From Cloacibacillus sp. (GTDB lineage Bacteria > Synergistota > Synergistia > Synergistales > Synergistaceae): a stretch of DNA of 24,000 bases. Of the stretch, positions 3,255-20,935 are shown piece by piece (position 1 is the stretch's first letter; the number at the start of each line of letters is the position of its first letter). The translations under genes were made by a program, and so were the position numbers. Below the pieces are notes generated by a model. That model was not told the origin of the DNA. It saw nothing but the letters and a program-made list of their open reading frames with translations, and did not search any database. The stretch covers positions 1 through 24,000 of the forward strand of contig JAVVPF010000015.1 of the NCBI GenBank assembly GCA_036655895.1. Reading direction: 5' to 3'.

Positions 3255-3710
3255 ATGGCAGATATCGACAGAAAACCTGAAAATAAAATATTCAAGAAAA
3301 GGCGCGGCTTCACTCTTATAGAAATAATGGTGGTGGTCGTTATTATCGGGCTGCTTTCCGCGCTTGTCGGGCCTAAGCTGATGGGCCAGAGCGACGAGGC
3401 GAAGCGCAAGACGACGCAGACGCAGATATCGCAGCTGGAACAGGTGCTTGGGCTTTACTATCTTGACAACGGCTTCTACCCGACGACGCAGCAGGGCCTT
3501 GAGGCGCTGGTCTCCGCACCCGCAACGCCGCCGGAACCGCTCAACTACAAAAAGGGCGGCTATATGAAAAAAATGGCGAAGGACGCTTGGGGACGCGAGT
3601 TCATCTATGCTGCGCCCGGCGAGCACGGCGATTTTGACATCCTCTCCTACGGCGCGGACGGCCAGGAGGGCGGCGAAGGCGCCGCAGCCGACATCATGAA
3701 TTGGGAATAG
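3255..3710 (+). CDS. gspG: type II secretion major pseudopilin GspG-like protein
   Basis: Prepilin motif KRRG|FTLIEIMVVVVIIGLL, then GspG-typical DEAKRKTTQTQISQLEQ...LDNG.YPT.QGL.AL and DAWGREFIY..PGEHGDFDILSYGADGQEGGEG. RBS GGAGGTG lies 5 nt upstream of the ATG. Confidence 0.85.
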   Translation: MADIDRKPENKIFKKRRGFTLIEIMVVVVIIGLLSALVGPKLMGQSDEAKRKTTQTQISQLEQVLGLYYLDNGFYPTTQQGLEALVSAPATPPEPLNYKKGGYMKKMAKDAWGREFIYAAPGEHGDFDILSYGADGQEGGEGAAADIMNWE

Positions 3711-3736
3711 GGGCGAATACATTGAATAAACCTGAG

Positions 3737-4276
3737 ATGATAATAAAAGCCATCCGCCATGATCTGCTGCTTGAGACGAGCAAGGGGGTGGACGCGGGCG
3801 GCCACGTCTTCGGCGCGGTGGTGCTCGATAAAGCGACGCTTTGTCCGGTCATCGCCGGAAGCAACAACCGAATGGAAAATCCTATATACCACGGCGAGGT
3901 GGAGACGCTGCGGCGTTTCTTCGCCTGCCCGAACCACCCGAAGCCCAAAGACTGCATCTTCGTAGCAAGCCACGACCCGTGCCCGATGTGCATTTCAGCC
4001 ATCGCGTGGGCCGGCTTTGACGAAGTGTGGGTGCTCTTTAACTACGAGGACGTAAAAAAGAGCTTCGGTATGCCCGTAGACCTTCTGATGTATAAAGAAA
4101 TATTTGGCGCGGAGGGCGCGCGGCCGCAGAACGCCTTCTTTAAAAAATACGACTTAAAGGCGGAGGCGGCAAAAGAAGAAAACGCAGAACAGCTTGCCGC
4201 GGCAATATCTGAAATAGAGGCTCTATACGCACAGATAGGCAAACAGGTGCGTGACTTCGACTATCCGGGAATGTAG
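3737..4276 (+). CDS. cytidine/deoxycytidylate (CDA) family zinc deaminase
   Basis: Zinc-binding motifs HGE (YHGEVETL) and PCPMC. The start is uncertain: ATG 3737, or TTG 3722 preceded by AGGGG. The C-terminal roughly 60 aa is Ala/Glu-rich and helical-looking. Confidence 0.7.
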   Translation: MIIKAIRHDLLLETSKGVDAGGHVFGAVVLDKATLCPVIAGSNNRMENPIYHGEVETLRRFFACPNHPKPKDCIFVASHDPCPMCISAIAWAGFDEVWVLFNYEDVKKSFGMPVDLLMYKEIFGAEGARPQNAFFKKYDLKAEAAKEENAEQLAAAISEIEALYAQIGKQVRDFDYPGM

Positions 4277-16629: not shown

Positions 16630-17403
16630 TCACAGCGCTGCTTTCCGGTATCGCCCGCGCCCTGCGAACTCAATAAGCCCCCGGTCTCTTAGCATCTGCA
16701 ACTGCTGCCTTATTTTTGCGCGGATGTTGTTGTTTTCTGGGTGGATCGCCGACAGTTTTTCTTCAAAGTCGTATATTTTCGCCAGCGTGAATTCTTCGCC
16801 TGCGGTTTTGTTGACGCAGTTTAAAATGTCCAACAGCCAACTGCGCGTGGCCATCTCTTTTACCTCAAGCTTTAAGGCGGCGGCGAATTTTTTAATGACC
16901 ACTGCTTTTTCAAGCGGTACGCTATTCTCGATGATGTATATCCGCCCCTGCTCTGGAATGTCGTGAAGCAAGATATTACAGCCCGTCCATCCGGCTCTTT
17001 TTGCGGTAGGTGAAAGTGGTTCGCGTTTTTCAACTATCTTTGGTGTGAAGAAGAATTTTGGCACGGCGAAAAGGTCGTGGACGCGCATATCGGCGCGGCT
17101 GTAGTTCATGAAAAGAAAATCAGGGTTTGTCGTGCTCTTGATGCGGTCGATCATAGCTTCGTAGGCGCCGCCTGCCGTCTTTTTTGAAAAACCGTTCTGG
17201 CGGCTCTTTTGCTCGTAGACCGCGCCGCAGGCGGGGCAGGAAAAATCCTTCACTGGCCGGTTCGCCGTCTCATGTATCAGATGATCGCTGCCGCAGCGAG
17301 GGCAGTAAAGGTTTGGCGCAGTCCACCCTTCGGTGAGCCTGCGCGCGATCTGCGACGGGCTCATGTATTGATTGCCAAGTTTCTCCTCAAGCGCCGTATT
17401 CAT
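16630..17403 (-). CDS. DpnI-like (Dam-replacing family, PF06044) methyl-directed type IIM restriction endonuclease
   Basis: It matches my recollection of S. pneumoniae DpnI along the whole length. Shared segments include A..LTE.W......YCP.CG...L.H...NRPV.DF.C..C, GAY..M..R.....NP.F.F..Y, PL.PTA.RAGW.GCNI, the C-terminal winged helix ..IL.C......EFTL...Y.FE..L, and I..KIRQQLQ.LRD...IEF.GRG.YRK. At 257 aa it is close to DpnI's roughly 254 aa. ATG at 17403 follows GGGAGA. Confidence 0.85.
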   Translation of the reverse strand: MNTALEEKLGNQYMSPSQIARRLTEGWTAPNLYCPRCGSDHLIHETANRPVKDFSCPACGAVYEQKSRQNGFSKKTAGGAYEAMIDRIKSTTNPDFLFMNYSRADMRVHDLFAVPKFFFTPKIVEKREPLSPTAKRAGWTGCNILLHDIPEQGRIYIIENSVPLEKAVVIKKFAAALKLEVKEMATRSWLLDILNCVNKTAGEEFTLAKIYDFEEKLSAIHPENNNIRAKIRQQLQMLRDRGLIEFAGRGRYRKAAL

Positions 17404-17429
17404 CGTCTTAAGTCTCCCGTTTCCTATAG

Positions 17430-18644
17430 TTAAAACATCTCCGTAACTCTCTCCAATATGCCGTTCAGCTGGGCTATGGCTATGCCGTAGTTGGTTATGG
17501 GGACGCCGGCGGCTTGGGCTTCTATTATTCGGGACATTAGCTGTTTTCTGGTGAACATGCAACCGCCGCAGTGGAGGATGAGTTTGTATTCTTTGAGGTT
17601 CGCGGGGAAGTCAAGGCCGGTGGCGATGTCGGCGGTGAGGTTTTCTCCGGCTTTTTCGCGCAGCCAACGCGGCAGTTTTTCGCGGCCGATGTCTTCGTTC
17701 AGCGGCGCGTGGGTGCAGGCTTCGGCTATTAGCACCTTGTCGCCGTCTTTGAGGTTTTCTATGGCGCGCGCGCCCTCTATGAAGGCGGCAAGTTCGCCTT
17801 TCGCTCGCGCCATGAGTATGGAGAAGGAGGTGAGCGGCACGCTGCGCGGCAGCACGCCGTTTACGTAGCCAAAGACCTGCGAGTCGGTTATGACGAGCGC
17901 CGGCGGCTCTTTGAGCGCGGCCAGCATCTGCGGGAAACGGTCGGCGGTGCAGGAGAGCGCCATGCCGCCGTTGTCCAGGATGTCGCGTATCGTCTGCACT
18001 TCGGGCAGTATGAGCCGGCCTTTGGGAGCCTGTATGTCCTGCGGCGCTACGAGTACGACAGTGGCGCCCGGCAAAAAGAGGTCGCCCGTCAGCGTCGGCG
18101 CTTCAAAATCTGTGGGCGCCGCCTTTACGATGGAGGCAAGCAGCGGCGCGCGGGAGTTTTTGTCAAGCGCGGAGACCGCCGTGAAGGGGATGCCGAGCGC
18201 GGCTTCGACGCGGGCGCGAAGCGGCTCCACCTCCTGCGGCGCCAGTTTGTCCGTCTGGTTGAGCACGCCGATGACCGAGGTTTTTCTCTTTCGGAACTCT
18301 TCTATCCATTCTTTTTCAAAGTCAAGCGCGCCCGACGCCGCGCCCGCGGCTACGACCAGCAGCGCAAGGTCCGTCCTGTCCATCATGGAGCGCGCGCGTT
18401 CGATGCGCAGGGCGCCCAGCTCGCCGGTGTCGTCCAGCCCCGCCGTGTCTATTACGGCGATGGGGCCGAGCGGCAACAGCTCCATGCTTTTGATGACGGG
18501 GTCGGTGGTTGTGCCGGCGTATTCGGAGACGAGCGCCGTCTGCTGCGCCGTTACGAGGTTTATGAGGCTCGATTTGCCGGCGTTGCGTCTGCCGTAGAAG
18601 CCGATGTGCAGGCGGTTGCCGCGGGGGGTGTCGGAGAGCGCCAT
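17430..18644 (-). CDS. hydF: [FeFe]-hydrogenase H-cluster maturation GTPase HydF
   Basis: N-terminal GTPase P-loop GRRNAGKSSLIN, plus the C-terminal cluster-binding motif EACTHAP...HCGGC (CxH...HCxxC). Length is 404 aa. Confidence 0.9.
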   Translation of the reverse strand: MALSDTPRGNRLHIGFYGRRNAGKSSLINLVTAQQTALVSEYAGTTTDPVIKSMELLPLGPIAVIDTAGLDDTGELGALRIERARSMMDRTDLALLVVAAGAASGALDFEKEWIEEFRKRKTSVIGVLNQTDKLAPQEVEPLRARVEAALGIPFTAVSALDKNSRAPLLASIVKAAPTDFEAPTLTGDLFLPGATVVLVAPQDIQAPKGRLILPEVQTIRDILDNGGMALSCTADRFPQMLAALKEPPALVITDSQVFGYVNGVLPRSVPLTSFSILMARAKGELAAFIEGARAIENLKDGDKVLIAEACTHAPLNEDIGREKLPRWLREKAGENLTADIATGLDFPANLKEYKLILHCGGCMFTRKQLMSRIIEAQAAGVPITNYGIAIAQLNGILERVTEMF

Positions 18645-19568
18645 CTATTTCACCAGCGCGCGCACGTCGTCTATTTTTTTGCGCTGCAAGCCGTTGTCGA
18701 GCATGAACTGCTGCGTGCGCACCAGCTCTTCTATGTCTGCTTTGCGAATGGCCGGGTCAAAGTTGTACCAGCCGTACATGGCCTCTACGCCGGCCATCGG
18801 CATTCCAGTCTCTTTCTGGGTCATCTCTTTTGCCTCTTTTGGATGTTTTTTCATCCATTCGAGCGTCTTTTTGTGCGTCTCCATGAAGGTCGCGACGGCT
18901 TTAGGATAGGCTTTCATGAATTTGTCCGTCGTGGCTATGACGATCGTCGCGTCCACTAGTCCCTCGCCGTTTTTGAGCATCCGCGAGCCTGTTGAGAGCG
19001 CCTTGTAGGCGGCGGGGCCGGCAAGCAGCGCCGCGTCTACGCTGTTGTTCGCCAGTGCGTTTGCGCCGGAGGCCAAGTCCATCTGGATGAAGCTGACGTC
19101 GCGCATGGACATGCCCTCTTTGTCGAGCGCTGCGGCAAGCAGCTGATGAAGTATCGTTCCTTTGGGGCCGGCCACTTTTTTGCCTTTGAGGTCGCGCACG
19201 GTTTTTATCGCGGGGTCTTTTACTACTATCATGAAGGCTTTCGGCGCGCGGGAGTATATTCCGACGATGCGAAGGTCAAGGCCTTCGGAGGCGGCAAGCA
19301 GCGCTGAGGTGGAGCCAAGGCAGCTGGCTATGCCTATCTCGCCCGCGGCAAGCGCAGCCGTCTGTTTGGGGCCCTCCGTCAGTTCGGGGAAGGCGAGCGT
19401 AACGCCGGGGTAGGCGGCTTCAAAGGATCTGTTGTATTTTTCAACGATCGACGGAACGTTGAGCGGCGCTTTGACGTAGGTGATGGCAAGTTTTGCCGGG
19501 TAGTCCGCGGCAAACGCTGTGGCCGCCGCCGCAAGGACGATGAGAAACGCTGTGATTATTTTTTTCAT
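18645..19568 (-). CDS. periplasmic substrate-binding protein, NMT1/THI5-like (NitT/TauT ABC family type), orphan
   Basis: Signal peptide MKKIITAFLIVLAAAATAFA. The sequence has SsuA/NMT1-like character. RBS GGGAGA. Its TAG stop abuts the hydF ATG (TAGATG). No permease or ATPase gene is adjacent. Confidence 0.75.
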   Translation of the reverse strand: MKKIITAFLIVLAAAATAFAADYPAKLAITYVKAPLNVPSIVEKYNRSFEAAYPGVTLAFPELTEGPKQTAALAAGEIGIASCLGSTSALLAASEGLDLRIVGIYSRAPKAFMIVVKDPAIKTVRDLKGKKVAGPKGTILHQLLAAALDKEGMSMRDVSFIQMDLASGANALANNSVDAALLAGPAAYKALSTGSRMLKNGEGLVDATIVIATTDKFMKAYPKAVATFMETHKKTLEWMKKHPKEAKEMTQKETGMPMAGVEAMYGWYNFDPAIRKADIEELVRTQQFMLDNGLQRKKIDDVRALVK

Positions 19569-19660
19569 TTTGAATATCTCCCTTTTTTAATTTTAAATTT
19601 TTATATTTTGGAACGGCTGATCATAAAACTGCAAAAGGACGGGCTGTCGAAGAGAGGCCT

Positions 19661-19948
19661 CTATTTTTTCGACATGGCGGCTTTGACGGTGACGCCGGTT
19701 ATTTTTCCCAGTTTGCCTGTGAGCGCGCTTATGGAATCGGTCGTTCCGTCCAGCACGACGGAGATGACTGAAAGTCCGCGCTCGCGGTAGGGGATGCCGA
19801 GGCGGCCGACGATGAGGCCGCTGTACTGGTGCAGCACGGCGTTGACGGAGGCGGCGCTGTCCGGCTCTTCAACGATTATGGCGGCCACGCCGATTTTGTT
19901 TTCGTCCTTTTTTTGTTCTTTGTCTTCGTTTGCTGGTATTTCCGGCAT
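19661..19948 (-). CDS. TM1266-family putative iron-only hydrogenase system regulator (ACT/NikR-C-like, 95 aa)
   Basis: ATG at 19948 follows GGAGGG. The core IGVAAIIVEEPDSAASVNAVLHQYSGLIVGRLGIPYRERGLSVISVVLDGTTDSISALTGKLGKITGVTVKAAM fits my recollection of the TIGR03959 family. Its position beside hydF agrees. Confidence 0.7.
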   Translation of the reverse strand: MPEIPANEDKEQKKDENKIGVAAIIVEEPDSAASVNAVLHQYSGLIVGRLGIPYRERGLSVISVVLDGTTDSISALTGKLGKITGVTVKAAMSKK

Positions 19949-19966
19949 GGATGTCCCTCCTAAAAT

Positions 19967-20003
19967 AAAAAACAGAGCCGCTCCCGCACGGGAAAGGCTC
20001 TGT
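19967..20003 (-). terminator. intrinsic terminator inside the 5' leader of the TM1266-SBP-hydF operon
   Basis: On the minus strand: ACAGAGCC (20003-19996), a 16-nt interior with inner stem UCCC/GGGA, GGCUCUGU (19979-19972), then U5. It lies 23 nt upstream of the start codon. Confidence 0.6.
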
Positions 20004-20127
20004 GAACGACATACAGAATTGCAGACCGCTTGCCGACCGCCGGAATGTTTCAACTAACGCGCCCGTGCGGGGCGACATACAGAACTGTTTACCTCTCCCC
20101 ACCCGCAGGGCGCACCTCCGGGAGCGG
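19967..20127 (-). promoter_or_regulatory. attenuator / candidate riboswitch leader of the hydrogenase-maturation operon
   Basis: There are mutually exclusive helices. 20119-20127 is complementary to 19978-19986 (9 bp). 20062-20071 is complementary to 19983-19992 (10 bp). An upstream hairpin pairs 20102-20113 with 20059-20071 (12 bp, one bulge). A 12-nt direct repeat occurs at 20073-20084 and 20007-20018. Confidence 0.5.
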
Positions 20128-20152
20128 AACGTTTATTAAAATCTCTTTAGAT

Positions 20153-20180
20153 ATTATAGGCTAAATCTTGCGTTAGGCAA
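20153..20180 (-). promoter_or_regulatory. candidate promoter of the TM1266-SBP-hydF operon
   Basis: On the minus strand: TTGCCT (20180-20175), 16-nt spacer, TATAAT (20158-20153). Confidence 0.45.
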
Positions 20181-20239
20181 GCGGTATTTTTAACGAACCG
20201 CCCGCGCCGCCGCACCGTTTTTTGCGGCGCTTTCGTAAA

Positions 20240-20935
20240 TTATTTGAGCGGATGTTTCGCCTTGTCCTTTGCGTCCTCGGCCTTGTAGAAGGCGTCGATT
20301 TTTTCTAATATGAGGCGGCGTTTTTCGCGGTCGTCCGCCTCCTGAGGCAGAAGCGCCGGGTCTATCGGATCTCCGAAGGTGACGGTGAGCTTGCGCGGGC
20401 GCGGGAAGCGCATGGCGGGCGAGAGCGCGCGGAAGGAGCCGCTGACGTAGGTGGGCACGACAGGCGCGCCTGTTTTTAGCGCCATGATGGCGACGCCGCC
20501 TTCAAGCGGCTGGAGCCGTCCGTCGAGCGTCCTGTGCCCTTCGGGGCAGATGAAGGCGCTGAATCCGTCTTTTATAAAGCCTATGACCATGCGAAGCAGC
20601 CCCGCGGAGCTGGCTTTGTTTTCGGGCGAGACTGGCACAGCGCCCATCTCATGCAGGAAGGCCGCGAAGGGTTTGAAGTGAAACAGCCCTTCCCATGCGA
20701 TGAATTTTAAATAGCCGGGCAAAAAGGCGTATCCAACTACGGGCGGGTCGAGGTAGCTTGCGTGGTTTGGCGCGACTATTACGGGCCTCTCCTGCGGGAT
20801 TTTCTCTTTGCCGAAAATCTCCAAACGATGATAGAATGTGAAATATAGGAATGTTATAAGACGTACTACGTTATATACCCAGTTTCTGTCAGATTTCAAA
20901 GCCGATTCCCCCAATGTGCTGCTGTTTAATAGCAT
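20240..20935 (-). CDS. plsC: 1-acyl-sn-glycerol-3-phosphate acyltransferase (lysophospholipid acyltransferase family)
   Basis: Acyltransferase block I NHASYLD (HX4D) and block III CPEGHRT. Length is 231 aa. Confidence 0.85.
   Translation of the reverse strand: MLLNSSTLGESALKSDRNWVYNVVRLITFLYFTFYHRLEIFGKEKIPQERPVIVAPNHASYLDPPVVGYAFLPGYLKFIAWEGLFHFKPFAAFLHEMGAVPVSPENKASSAGLLRMVIGFIKDGFSAFICPEGHRTLDGRLQPLEGGVAIMALKTGAPVVPTYVSGSFRALSPAMRFPRPRKLTVTFGDPIDPALLPQEADDREKRRLILEKIDAFYKAEDAKDKAKHPLK

Follow-up and report, generated by a model that had tools for sequence, protein, structure and literature searches.

The pyr operon of Bacillus carries a leader hairpin that, once stabilized by the PyrR protein, favors termination of transcription; PyrR regulates its own operon in this manner, and further sites can stand before other transcription units. 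In the LicT/SacY/BglG systems, a symmetric protein dimer binds to a short hairpin, the ribonucleic antiterminator (RAT), which has two purine-containing internal loops. Metabolites are sensed by small rod-like aptamers as well: the THF-II (folE motif), xanthine (NMT1 motif), and HMP-PP (thiS motif) riboswitches are hairpins of ~40–55 nt with conserved purines in their internal loops, and they act as off switches through an intrinsic terminator that either follows or encloses them; the c-di-AMP (ydaO) aptamer is pseudo-symmetric. Here, we describe a leader that invites comparison with all of these. It occupies ~200 nt in front of an operon (TM1266-SBP-hydF) that encodes a TM1266-family protein, an exported binding protein (SBP), and the GTPase HydF, and it lies on a 24,000-nt stretch of DNA from Cloacibacillus sp. 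(contig JAVVPF010000015.1, positions 1 to 24,000; hereafter, “the window”). Its central element is a conserved rod-shaped hairpin, P1. Coordinates refer to the window, and the features of the leader and the operon lie on its minus strand.

To our knowledge, essentially nothing is known about the control of when cells make HydE, HydF, and HydG, the builders of the [FeFe]-hydrogenase H-cluster. TM1266 has been labeled a “putative regulator” since the release of its structure in 2006, with no mechanism attached. A preliminary description of the window had placed an attenuator of no known riboswitch class before the operon, and had held RNA-level control of [FeFe]-hydrogenase maturation genes to be undescribed. 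All of the sequence features that it listed are present where it placed them, and the Rfam scan that it had proposed gave no family match: in Rfam 15, no family reached the gathering threshold over the whole window, and a permissive scan of 19850–20300 returned only a 16-bit, terminator-like match to an unrelated small RNA on the other strand. The leaders of relatives, whether of the Synergistaceae or the Firmicutes type (see below), had no relevant Rfam match. In the literature searched, large motif-discovery surveys included, we found no description of either leader type and no RNA-level control of these maturation genes. The leader family, its gene context, and its symmetric mismatch rod are absent from Rfam 15 and from the literature searched; as a kind, a terminator/antiterminator leader is well known.

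A conserved rod-shaped hairpin upstream of TM1266

TM1266 loci were gathered from one genome per species (80 species-level loci) and from the assemblies that encode the closest homologues. P1 precedes every Synergistaceae TM1266 gene fetched. Its sequence in the window is UCC G CUCCCG G AGG (UGCGC) CCU G CGGGUG G GGA: two G.G mismatches stand around a 6-position helix, the base is UCC/GGA, and the top conforms to G-G-R / Y-C-Y, as in the Synergistaceae type generally. The hairpin is located between the promoter and an intrinsic terminator, directly 5′ of TM1266, and has a tail complementary to the 5′ arm of that terminator (Table 1).

The pairing is well supported by comparison. Among 21 distinct sequences, 94.4% of the P1 cells are paired, and 8 of the 12 pairs show changes on both sides (i.e., compensatory changes). 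None of 500 shuffles paired as well, and sliding the register lowered the paired fraction to 56–86%. RNAalifold found P1 independently, and single-sequence folds recovered it in divergent members. The window itself contributes a compensatory change, having A-U at the top pair where the others have G-C. Both G.G oppositions are invariant in alignments A3, A6, and A7. A covariance search corroborated these results: model R3, built from 18 sequences that included neither the window nor the same-species contig and run with all filters off, matched the window at 20135–20086 (minus strand) with 41.5 bits (E = 3.8e-10), while the runner-up in the 24 kb attained 8.8 bits. Synergistaceae-type models matched solely in Synergistaceae loci and solely directly upstream of TM1266 genes; weak matches of model R1 in Ruminococcus-like loci fell inside a coding region and were hence dismissed as spurious. 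The preliminary description missed this element. In the sequences compared, what is conserved is a local hairpin between CCGCUCCCG and the 5′ strand of what had been read as a 12-bp hairpin, together with a purine tail.

Table 1. Features of the leader and operon in window coordinates.
Feature	Coordinates	Strand	Details
Sigma-70-type promoter	20153..20180	-	-35 TTGCCT 20180-20175, 16-nt spacer, -10 TATAAT 20158-20153; 10/12 matches (promoter scan)
P1, conserved rod-shaped hairpin (33 nt)	20096..20128	-	Alignments A3, A6; RNAalifold; leave-out model R3
Parts of P1			UCC/GGA base; G20125.G20099 mismatch; 6-position middle helix; G20118.G20106 mismatch; AGG/CCU top; loop 20114-20110 (5 nt)
CCGCUCCCG	20119..20127	-	P1 5′ strand; alternative partner CGGGAGCGG (19986-19978), terminator 3′ half
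Purine tail GGGAGAGGU	20091..20099	-	Overlaps 3′ strand of P1 base; upstream strand of putative antiterminator
Putative antiterminator target GCCUUUCCC	19998-19990	-	Terminator 5′ arm; 9 pairs with purine tail
12-mer copy 1, UUCUGUAUGUCG	20073..20084	-	Ancestral linker between tail and terminator
66-nt species-specific insertion	20007..20072	-	29-nt spacer with CCCGCACGGG, plus degenerate 37-nt copy
Intrinsic terminator	19967..20003	-	ACAGAGCC..UCCC-GUGC-GGGA..GGCUCUGU, then U5
Ribosome-binding site GGAGGG	19960-19955	-	ATG start of TM1266-family gene at 19948-19946
Operon TM1266-SBP-hydF	17430..19948	-	
TM1266-family gene	19948-19661	-	TIGR03959, 110 bits
Exported SsuA/NMT1-type binding protein	19568-18645	-	TIGR01728, 176 bits
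HydF GTPase	18644-17430	-	TIGR03918, 527 bits

Both strands of P1 read UCC-G-N6-G-GGA in the 5′-to-3′ direction. Could the element instead act as DNA, an inverted repeat bound by a dimeric transcription factor downstream of the promoter? Transcription is predicted to start ~18 to 50 nt before the repeat, which is more or less a palindrome, and type-A Synergistaceae loci do carry a highly conserved, CRP/FNR-like sequence (TGTGATAAAAGTGTCA) that overlaps the promoter. However, G-U occurs at many of the pairs (with counts of UG 8 at one of them, and of UG 5 and GU 4 elsewhere), the conserved G.G and, in Firmicutes, GA/AA oppositions are mismatches in DNA terms, and the tail covaries with the terminator arm. 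Because both strands read the same 5′ to 3′, the symmetry is that of an RNA duplex, not that of a DNA palindrome. The G-U pairs and the conserved non-Watson–Crick positions thus favor an RNA element, and these, with the tail–terminator covariation, led us to reject the operator as extremely improbable.

Side features were observed in several Synergistaceae leaders. Eight loci (L002–L006, L012, L098, L099) have a near-identical promoter region, ACATTGACACTTTTATCACAAG, in common, located ~150–200 nt before TM1266. Read on the opposite strand, as TGTGATAAAAGTGTCA, this region is similar to a CRP/FNR-type site overlapping the -35 element; it is absent from the window. In that subgroup, the resemblance suggests a second, DNA-level layer of control. 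Six of these loci (L002–L006, L012) have an additional conserved 5′ hairpin (YUUUGUCGG..CCGACAGRG) between the promoter and P1, with a GGGRAGG-like run of purines at its end. This hairpin resembles a second copy of the sensor rod, degenerate and with pairs in place of the mismatches, and in L003 it is matched by R1 with 10 bits. A molybdenum/tungsten cofactor riboswitch (RF01055, 69 bits) is found in L006, a Synergistaceae metagenome-assembled genome (MAG), at 532–649 of the minus strand, ~2.3 kb upstream of the TM1266 leader. Finally, L084 has a ~175-nt insertion (about 3706–3880) between the -10 box and the leader hairpin that is lacking from L085, which encodes an identical TM1266 protein. 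With its TTAA flanks and imperfect terminal inverted repeats (GGAAGTACTGATTA ... TAATCAGTGGCTCC), this insertion looks like a miniature transposable element that parts the promoter from the leader.

Competing folds of the leader and a species-specific insertion

The intrinsic terminator named in the preliminary description was borne out, both arms and U run being where it had put them. The arms comprise 19972–19986 and 19989–20003; the U run consists of the stem-closing U19972 and the five U at 19971–19967. As expected of an intrinsic terminator, the 30-nt hairpin 20002–19973 is G+C-rich (-19.9 kcal/mol), and it is closed by an A20003–U19972 pair that is followed by the five U. Most relatives carry a terminator with a CCUUUYCC-type 5′ arm.

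The purine tail can pair with this arm. In the window, the duplex has a calculated energy of -15.2 kcal/mol, compared with -7.5 ± 2.3 kcal/mol for shuffled tails, and the complementarity was better than that of shuffled tails (p < 0.05) in the window and in 10 of 17 other Synergistaceae leaders. The 5′ strand of P1 has its own partner in the terminator: the 9-bp complement between 20119–20127 and 19978–19986, which had been pointed out earlier, is perfect and is present in the minimum-energy fold. Left unconstrained, the leader folds at -69.8 kcal/mol with both the tail and the P1 5′ strand paired into the terminator, which is disrupted. When P1 was forced, the energy was -68.5 kcal/mol, and the terminator formed. 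As modeled, the leader has two near-isoenergetic folds, one allowing read-through and the other terminated. In this respect the folds support the earlier proposal of an unclassified attenuator, with a terminator opposed by upstream pairings.

From these data, we conclude that the leader is very probably a conserved attenuator that has P1 as its sensor. With the tail free, the tail and the P1 5′ strand would pair with the terminator, resulting in read-through. An effector that holds P1 shut, chiefly at its 3-bp base, would sequester the tail; the terminator would then form, transcription would stop, and the operon would be off. The tail is shared with the base of P1, and therefore whatever stabilizes the base should favor termination. 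On the strength of the modeled folds, we regard this off-switch logic as the likelier direction of control.

It might be argued that no conditional switch is present: P1 could serve to stabilize the 5′ end or to mark a site of processing, with a leaky terminator that attenuates constitutively and keeps expression at a low, fixed level. Indeed, hairpins near the 5′ end can protect mRNAs, P1 lies near the predicted 5′ end of the transcript, and no effector is known. A stabilizer, however, needs neither invariant G.G oppositions nor conserved flanks nor a conserved complementarity between tail and terminator, and an equivalent arrangement recurs in several phyla. We consider a constitutive leader improbable. 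Ribosome-mediated attenuation by a leader peptide was ruled out: the only open reading frames in the leader start at 20102 and 20053, have no ribosome-binding site, and cross a species-specific insertion, and the ~105-nt leaders of relatives leave no room for such a frame.

That insertion bears on the mechanism that had been proposed initially. There, two copies of an exact 12-mer (UUCUGUAUGUCG; 20084–20073 and 20018–20007, 66 nt apart) were taken as paired sites for a factor, a 12-bp hairpin (GCGCCCUGCGGG/CCCGCAcGGGCGC; 20113–20102 with 20071–20059) as an anti-antiterminator, and a 10-bp pairing (20062–20071 with 19983–19992) as the antiterminator. The exact repeat exists, every pair of the hairpin was verified, and the 10-bp complement is perfect. 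Moreover, a fold with the 12-bp hairpin forced (-69.5 kcal/mol) is near the minimum-energy fold and has the terminator formed. Forcing the 10-bp pairing, however, costs ~4 kcal/mol, and the model takes no account of the conserved P1.

The 12-mer is not a chance repeat; it belongs to a 37-nt duplication (repeat D1; 27 of 37 positions identical, or 73%; 66-nt spacing) of which it is the best-preserved part. The 37-nt copy comprises the P1 3′ strand, the tail, and the linker, and it ends in 12-mer copy 2. The same-species contig, L220 (98% TM1266 identity), has the same leader, insertion included, with four substitutions, one of them in 12-mer copy 1, at its first base. Five other relatives lack the insertion (L221, L222, L223, L084, and L090; two have a TM1266 identity of 83%, and the others have 80, 78, and 77%); in these, the tail and a short linker run straight into the terminator. 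No 12-mer-like box occurs in 18 other Synergistaceae leaders. In the 24-kb window, there is no further exact copy, and the two matches with two mismatches are in coding DNA, near chance expectation. The CCCGCACGGG segment of the insertion is the source of both the 10-bp and the 12-bp pairings. Shuffled sequences fold as well as the inserted region does (z -0.26), a result by which we ruled out the insertion as a selected stem-loop.

The test of conservation that the preliminary description had called for therefore had a split outcome: P1 is conserved with covariation, whereas the 12-mer and the 10-bp and 12-bp pairings are confined to one species. Because a species-specific insertion carries them, they cannot be the conserved mechanism. 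The proposal of paired factor-binding sites fails on the same point, as copy 2 lies in that insertion and the box is not conserved; we judge the model as a whole to be very improbable. The insertion, the 12-mers, and both pairings are, by comparison with relatives, a recent, lineage-specific by-product. The insertion may modulate the switch in this one species.

The promoter and ribosome-binding site are present at the coordinates first given for them, and from the promoter we infer a start of transcription near 20146. The TATAAT lies at an equal distance from P1 in L220, L221, and L090. On the minus strand, the order is the stop codon of a gene for a PlsC-like acyltransferase (20240), the promoter, the leader, GGAGGG, and the ATG at 19948; Synergistaceae relatives share the order DUF502–PlsC–leader–TM1266–(SBP)–HydF. 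Profile matches upheld the identities given earlier to the three downstream genes. Just past the plsC-like stop codon (20205–20231, minus strand) stands a hairpin rich in G and C, GCGCCGC-AAAAAACGGU-GCGGCGGCGC, that lacks a U run; the upstream transcript could end there, weakly or with the help of Rho, directly before the leader promoter. The binding protein carries a clear export signal (MKKIITAFLIVLAAAATAFA), and no permease or ATPase gene adjoins its gene. A gene for a DpnI-like, methyl-directed restriction endonuclease (PF06044, 223 bits; 16630–17562, minus strand) is located directly downstream of hydF. Its listed TTG start overlaps the end of hydF; the true start is probably later.

Leaders of other lineages and the operons that they head

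Does the arrangement extend beyond the Synergistaceae? At many of the 80 species-level loci, a terminator with a 5′ arm of CCCUUYC or similar is located just upstream of TM1266; the phyla represented include Firmicutes, Acidobacteriota (Holophagaceae), Hydrogenedentota, Armatimonadota, and others. An element of the form CCY-GA-N4-AA-GG (loop) CC-GA-N4-AA-RGG precedes that terminator by ~50–100 nt (alignment A4). C-G is replaced by U-A at two positions of its helix in 8–9 of 27 sequences, and 88% of the cells are paired, vs. 35–53% in slid registers. Model R2 of this Firmicutes-type element found 29 strong and ~15 weaker instances, all ~100 nt upstream of TM1266; sub-variants exist. Some version of the leader is present in at least 51 of the 80 loci, 7 Synergistaceae loci included.

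The Firmicutes-type leader resembles that of the window in its position before TM1266, in having a rod of ~14 stacked layers with equivalent mismatch layers flanked by CC/GG, and in its purine tail and CCUUYC terminator arm. Both rods have the layout of 3 bp, purine mismatches, 4–6 bp, purine mismatches, and 2–3 bp, and both read alike on their two strands 5′ to 3′. Unlike the window, the Firmicutes type has 2×2 internal loops (GA/AA) instead of single G.G oppositions. Overall, the mismatches follow lineage: G.G in Synergistaceae, GA/AA in most Firmicutes, and AA/AA in Sedimentibacter-like leaders. At E ≤ 10, R2 matched neither the window nor any Synergistaceae locus; the leader of the window is thus not of the Firmicutes type. 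Common descent of the two rods is plausible. When the tail–terminator complementarity of Firmicutes-type leaders was compared with that of shuffled tails, 7 of 23 were significant (p < 0.05); the comparison is a weak one, because a pyrimidine-rich arm will pair with whatever purine-rich strand is offered, and the terminator finder was crude. We infer that the tail and terminator pair in these leaders also.

Metagenome contigs were scanned with the pattern alone, independently of any protein, and the matches were rescored with R2. Most were chance matches in GC-rich coding DNA; 10 of 80 attained at least 31 bits. One of these ten, L133, lies in GC-rich DNA and was set aside as an apparent chance match. 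The remaining nine are followed by TM1266 in six cases, by HydG-HydF in one (L142; HydG, at 680 bits, and HydF directly downstream of the motif), and by a NifH-like gene and then a nitrogenase component-1-like gene in two (L116, L135). On longer contigs (L224, 9085–17154; also L225 and L226), the motif and a terminator stand before genes for a NifH-like protein, two Oxidored_nitro proteins, HypF, HypC, HypD, and HypE. This operon belongs to a Mogibacterium-like MAG, and no [NiFe] hydrogenase gene is in view. The nifH-like/hypFCDE copy of the motif is present in MAG GCA_045544555.1. We do not recognize such a nitrogenase-like system, joined to the Hyp proteins that build Fe(CN)2CO, as having been described.

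Where TM1266 is present, the usual partners that follow it are HydG, HydE, and HydF; in Synergistaceae, HydF and the NMT1-type binding protein take this place. A complete NMT1-type ABC transporter comes after TM1266 in one Firmicutes subgroup (L022, L030, L042, L048, L051, and L061). The common theme of the controlled operons is the assembly of the Fe–CO/CN hydrogenase cofactor.

The chance matches of the metagenome scan contained some recurrent sequences. Those on L115 (1640–1696) and L168 include a 31-nt tandem unit, GGUGACCGCAAGGCCACCGAAGCGGAAGGGC, and three unrelated contigs (L100, L130, L175) share a near-identical sequence of ~50 nt, UCGUCAUUGCGACCGCGAGGCGAAGCCGAAGCGGGAAGCAAUCCAGGGGCCG. 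Both could be some sort of repeat element.

Candidate effectors and comparison with described systems

What might hold P1 shut? We favor a protein, since the rod is two-fold symmetric and its unpaired positions change between lineages; mismatches that vary by lineage are common where an RNA and a protein co-evolve and uncommon in a pocket for a small molecule. Our confidence in a protein effector is nonetheless evenly divided, and the same holds for the best explanation taken as a whole, i.e., an attenuator switched by a protein. The leading candidate is TM1266, because it is ACT/NikR-C-like and oligomeric and is encoded directly downstream; across the leaders, TM1266 is nearly always the first gene under control. 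This 82-residue protein is modeled as β-α-β-β-α-β. The model matches PDB 2NZC and the tetramerization domain of NikR (for the NikR C-terminal domain, Foldseek E about 3e-5 and query-normalized TM-score about 0.74), and there is no DNA-binding domain. Its conserved residues are R49, R55, R57, K82, K89, and Y54. RNA binding by TM1266 is hypothetical, and we hold its being the effector to be less likely than not.

If the effector is a two-fold symmetric protein such as the TM1266 product, the result would be negative autoregulation in the style of PyrR, possibly gated by a ligand; the symmetric shape of the hairpin fits such autoregulation, itself a possibility. More broadly, and tentatively, TM1266 could be a new kind of ligand-gated RNA-binding attenuation protein, one that recognizes a symmetric purine-mismatch rod in a phylum-spanning system for the assembly of the hydrogenase metal cofactor. 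It would then shut off hydE/F/G, the NMT1-type transporter, and the nitrogenase-like and hypFCDE cluster upon a cofactor-assembly signal.

Several observations count against this explanation. No RNA-binding protein is found among the structural neighbors of TM1266, and the protein is only mildly basic in charge and isoelectric point (net charge about +1). Its conserved residues are alike across loci that have different leader types or none. On the longer contigs, no TM1266 gene is within 10 kb of the nifH-like/hypFCDE operon, and the motif in L142, L116, and L135 likewise stands without a TM1266 gene nearby on the contig stretch examined. Covariation says little for the pairing at the base of P1, where the sequence scarcely varies. 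The direction of the switch was drawn from thermodynamic folding, not from kinetics. Lastly, the Synergistaceae and Firmicutes models do not cross-match, their sequences having diverged too far; the homology of the two rods is architectural only, and for this reason we call the types architecturally equivalent, not proven homologues.

Some of these observations agree with a true riboswitch, in which P1 would be a small rod aptamer for a metabolite or metal ion linked to the assembly of the hydrogenase cofactor (such as Fe(II), an intermediate of the pathway, or a redox dinucleotide) and TM1266 the first structural gene; the ligand would close the base of P1 and so bring about termination. The layout is classic for a riboswitch: an aptamer-like hairpin, an overlapping antiterminator, and a terminator. 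A related motif heads hydG-hydF and nifH-like/hypFCDE operons with no adjacent TM1266, a placement that accords no less well with a diffusible metabolite than with a trans-acting protein, and a shared chemical signal is suggested because all of the motif-led operons build Fe–CO/CN cofactors. Several unrelated riboswitch classes can sense one ligand (SAM-I to SAM-VI), so the two leader types could be two classes for the same ligand. However, the unpaired “pocket” positions vary across lineages (G.G, GA/AA, AA/AA), the rod is plain and symmetric, with neither tertiary contacts nor a pseudoknot in evidence, the Rfam aptamers do not match, and no ligand can be named with confidence from the gene set. 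We know of no riboswitch class that controls hydrogenase maturation. We view a riboswitch of this kind as rather unlikely, and put a small-ligand effector in general no higher.

Whichever effector applies, the conserved leader provides a concrete, testable control point for hydrogenase maturation, both in cultivable Cloacibacillus, such as Cloacibacillus porcorum with its leader in L083, and in many Clostridia; the ~50-nt hairpin is suited as it stands to assays of binding and transcription, and the 82-residue protein can be tested alongside it. Were TM1266 the effector, a new protein family would join the few RNA-binding attenuation proteins. Were it a small molecule, the leader would be a new riboswitch class with a ligand that reports on Fe–CO/CN cofactor biosynthesis. 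Through the motif before the nitrogenase-like and hypFCDE operon, this control seems to extend to chemistry not yet explored.

Of the described small-rod riboswitches, the THF-II, xanthine, and HMP-PP classes have strictly conserved loop nucleotides; in TM1266 leaders these positions vary by lineage, and the Rfam models of those classes do not match. NikR is like TM1266 in its C-terminal, metal-binding tetramerization domain, the basis of the “putative regulator” annotation. TM1266, however, has neither a ribbon-helix-helix domain nor the His/Cys nickel ligands (one His is invariant, and no Cys is conserved); lacking a DNA-binding domain and nickel ligands, it cannot act as NikR does. RAT is comparable to P1, both being short, imperfectly symmetric hairpins in a 5′ leader with an intrinsic terminator, which RAT overlaps. 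Protein binding to RAT prevents termination, whereas a stabilized P1 should favor termination; no CAT/PRD protein is encoded near the leader of the window, nor is there an Rfam match. With respect to PyrR, the binding loop (UCCAGAGAGG consensus, a purine-rich bulged hairpin) is unrelated to P1 in sequence and shape, and PyrR has a phosphoribosyltransferase fold, in contrast to the ACT/NikR-C-like TM1266, whose RNA binding is hypothetical. The layout of the PyrR system nevertheless comports with that proposed here: a hairpin lies upstream of an antiterminator/terminator, and the candidate regulator is the first gene after the leader.

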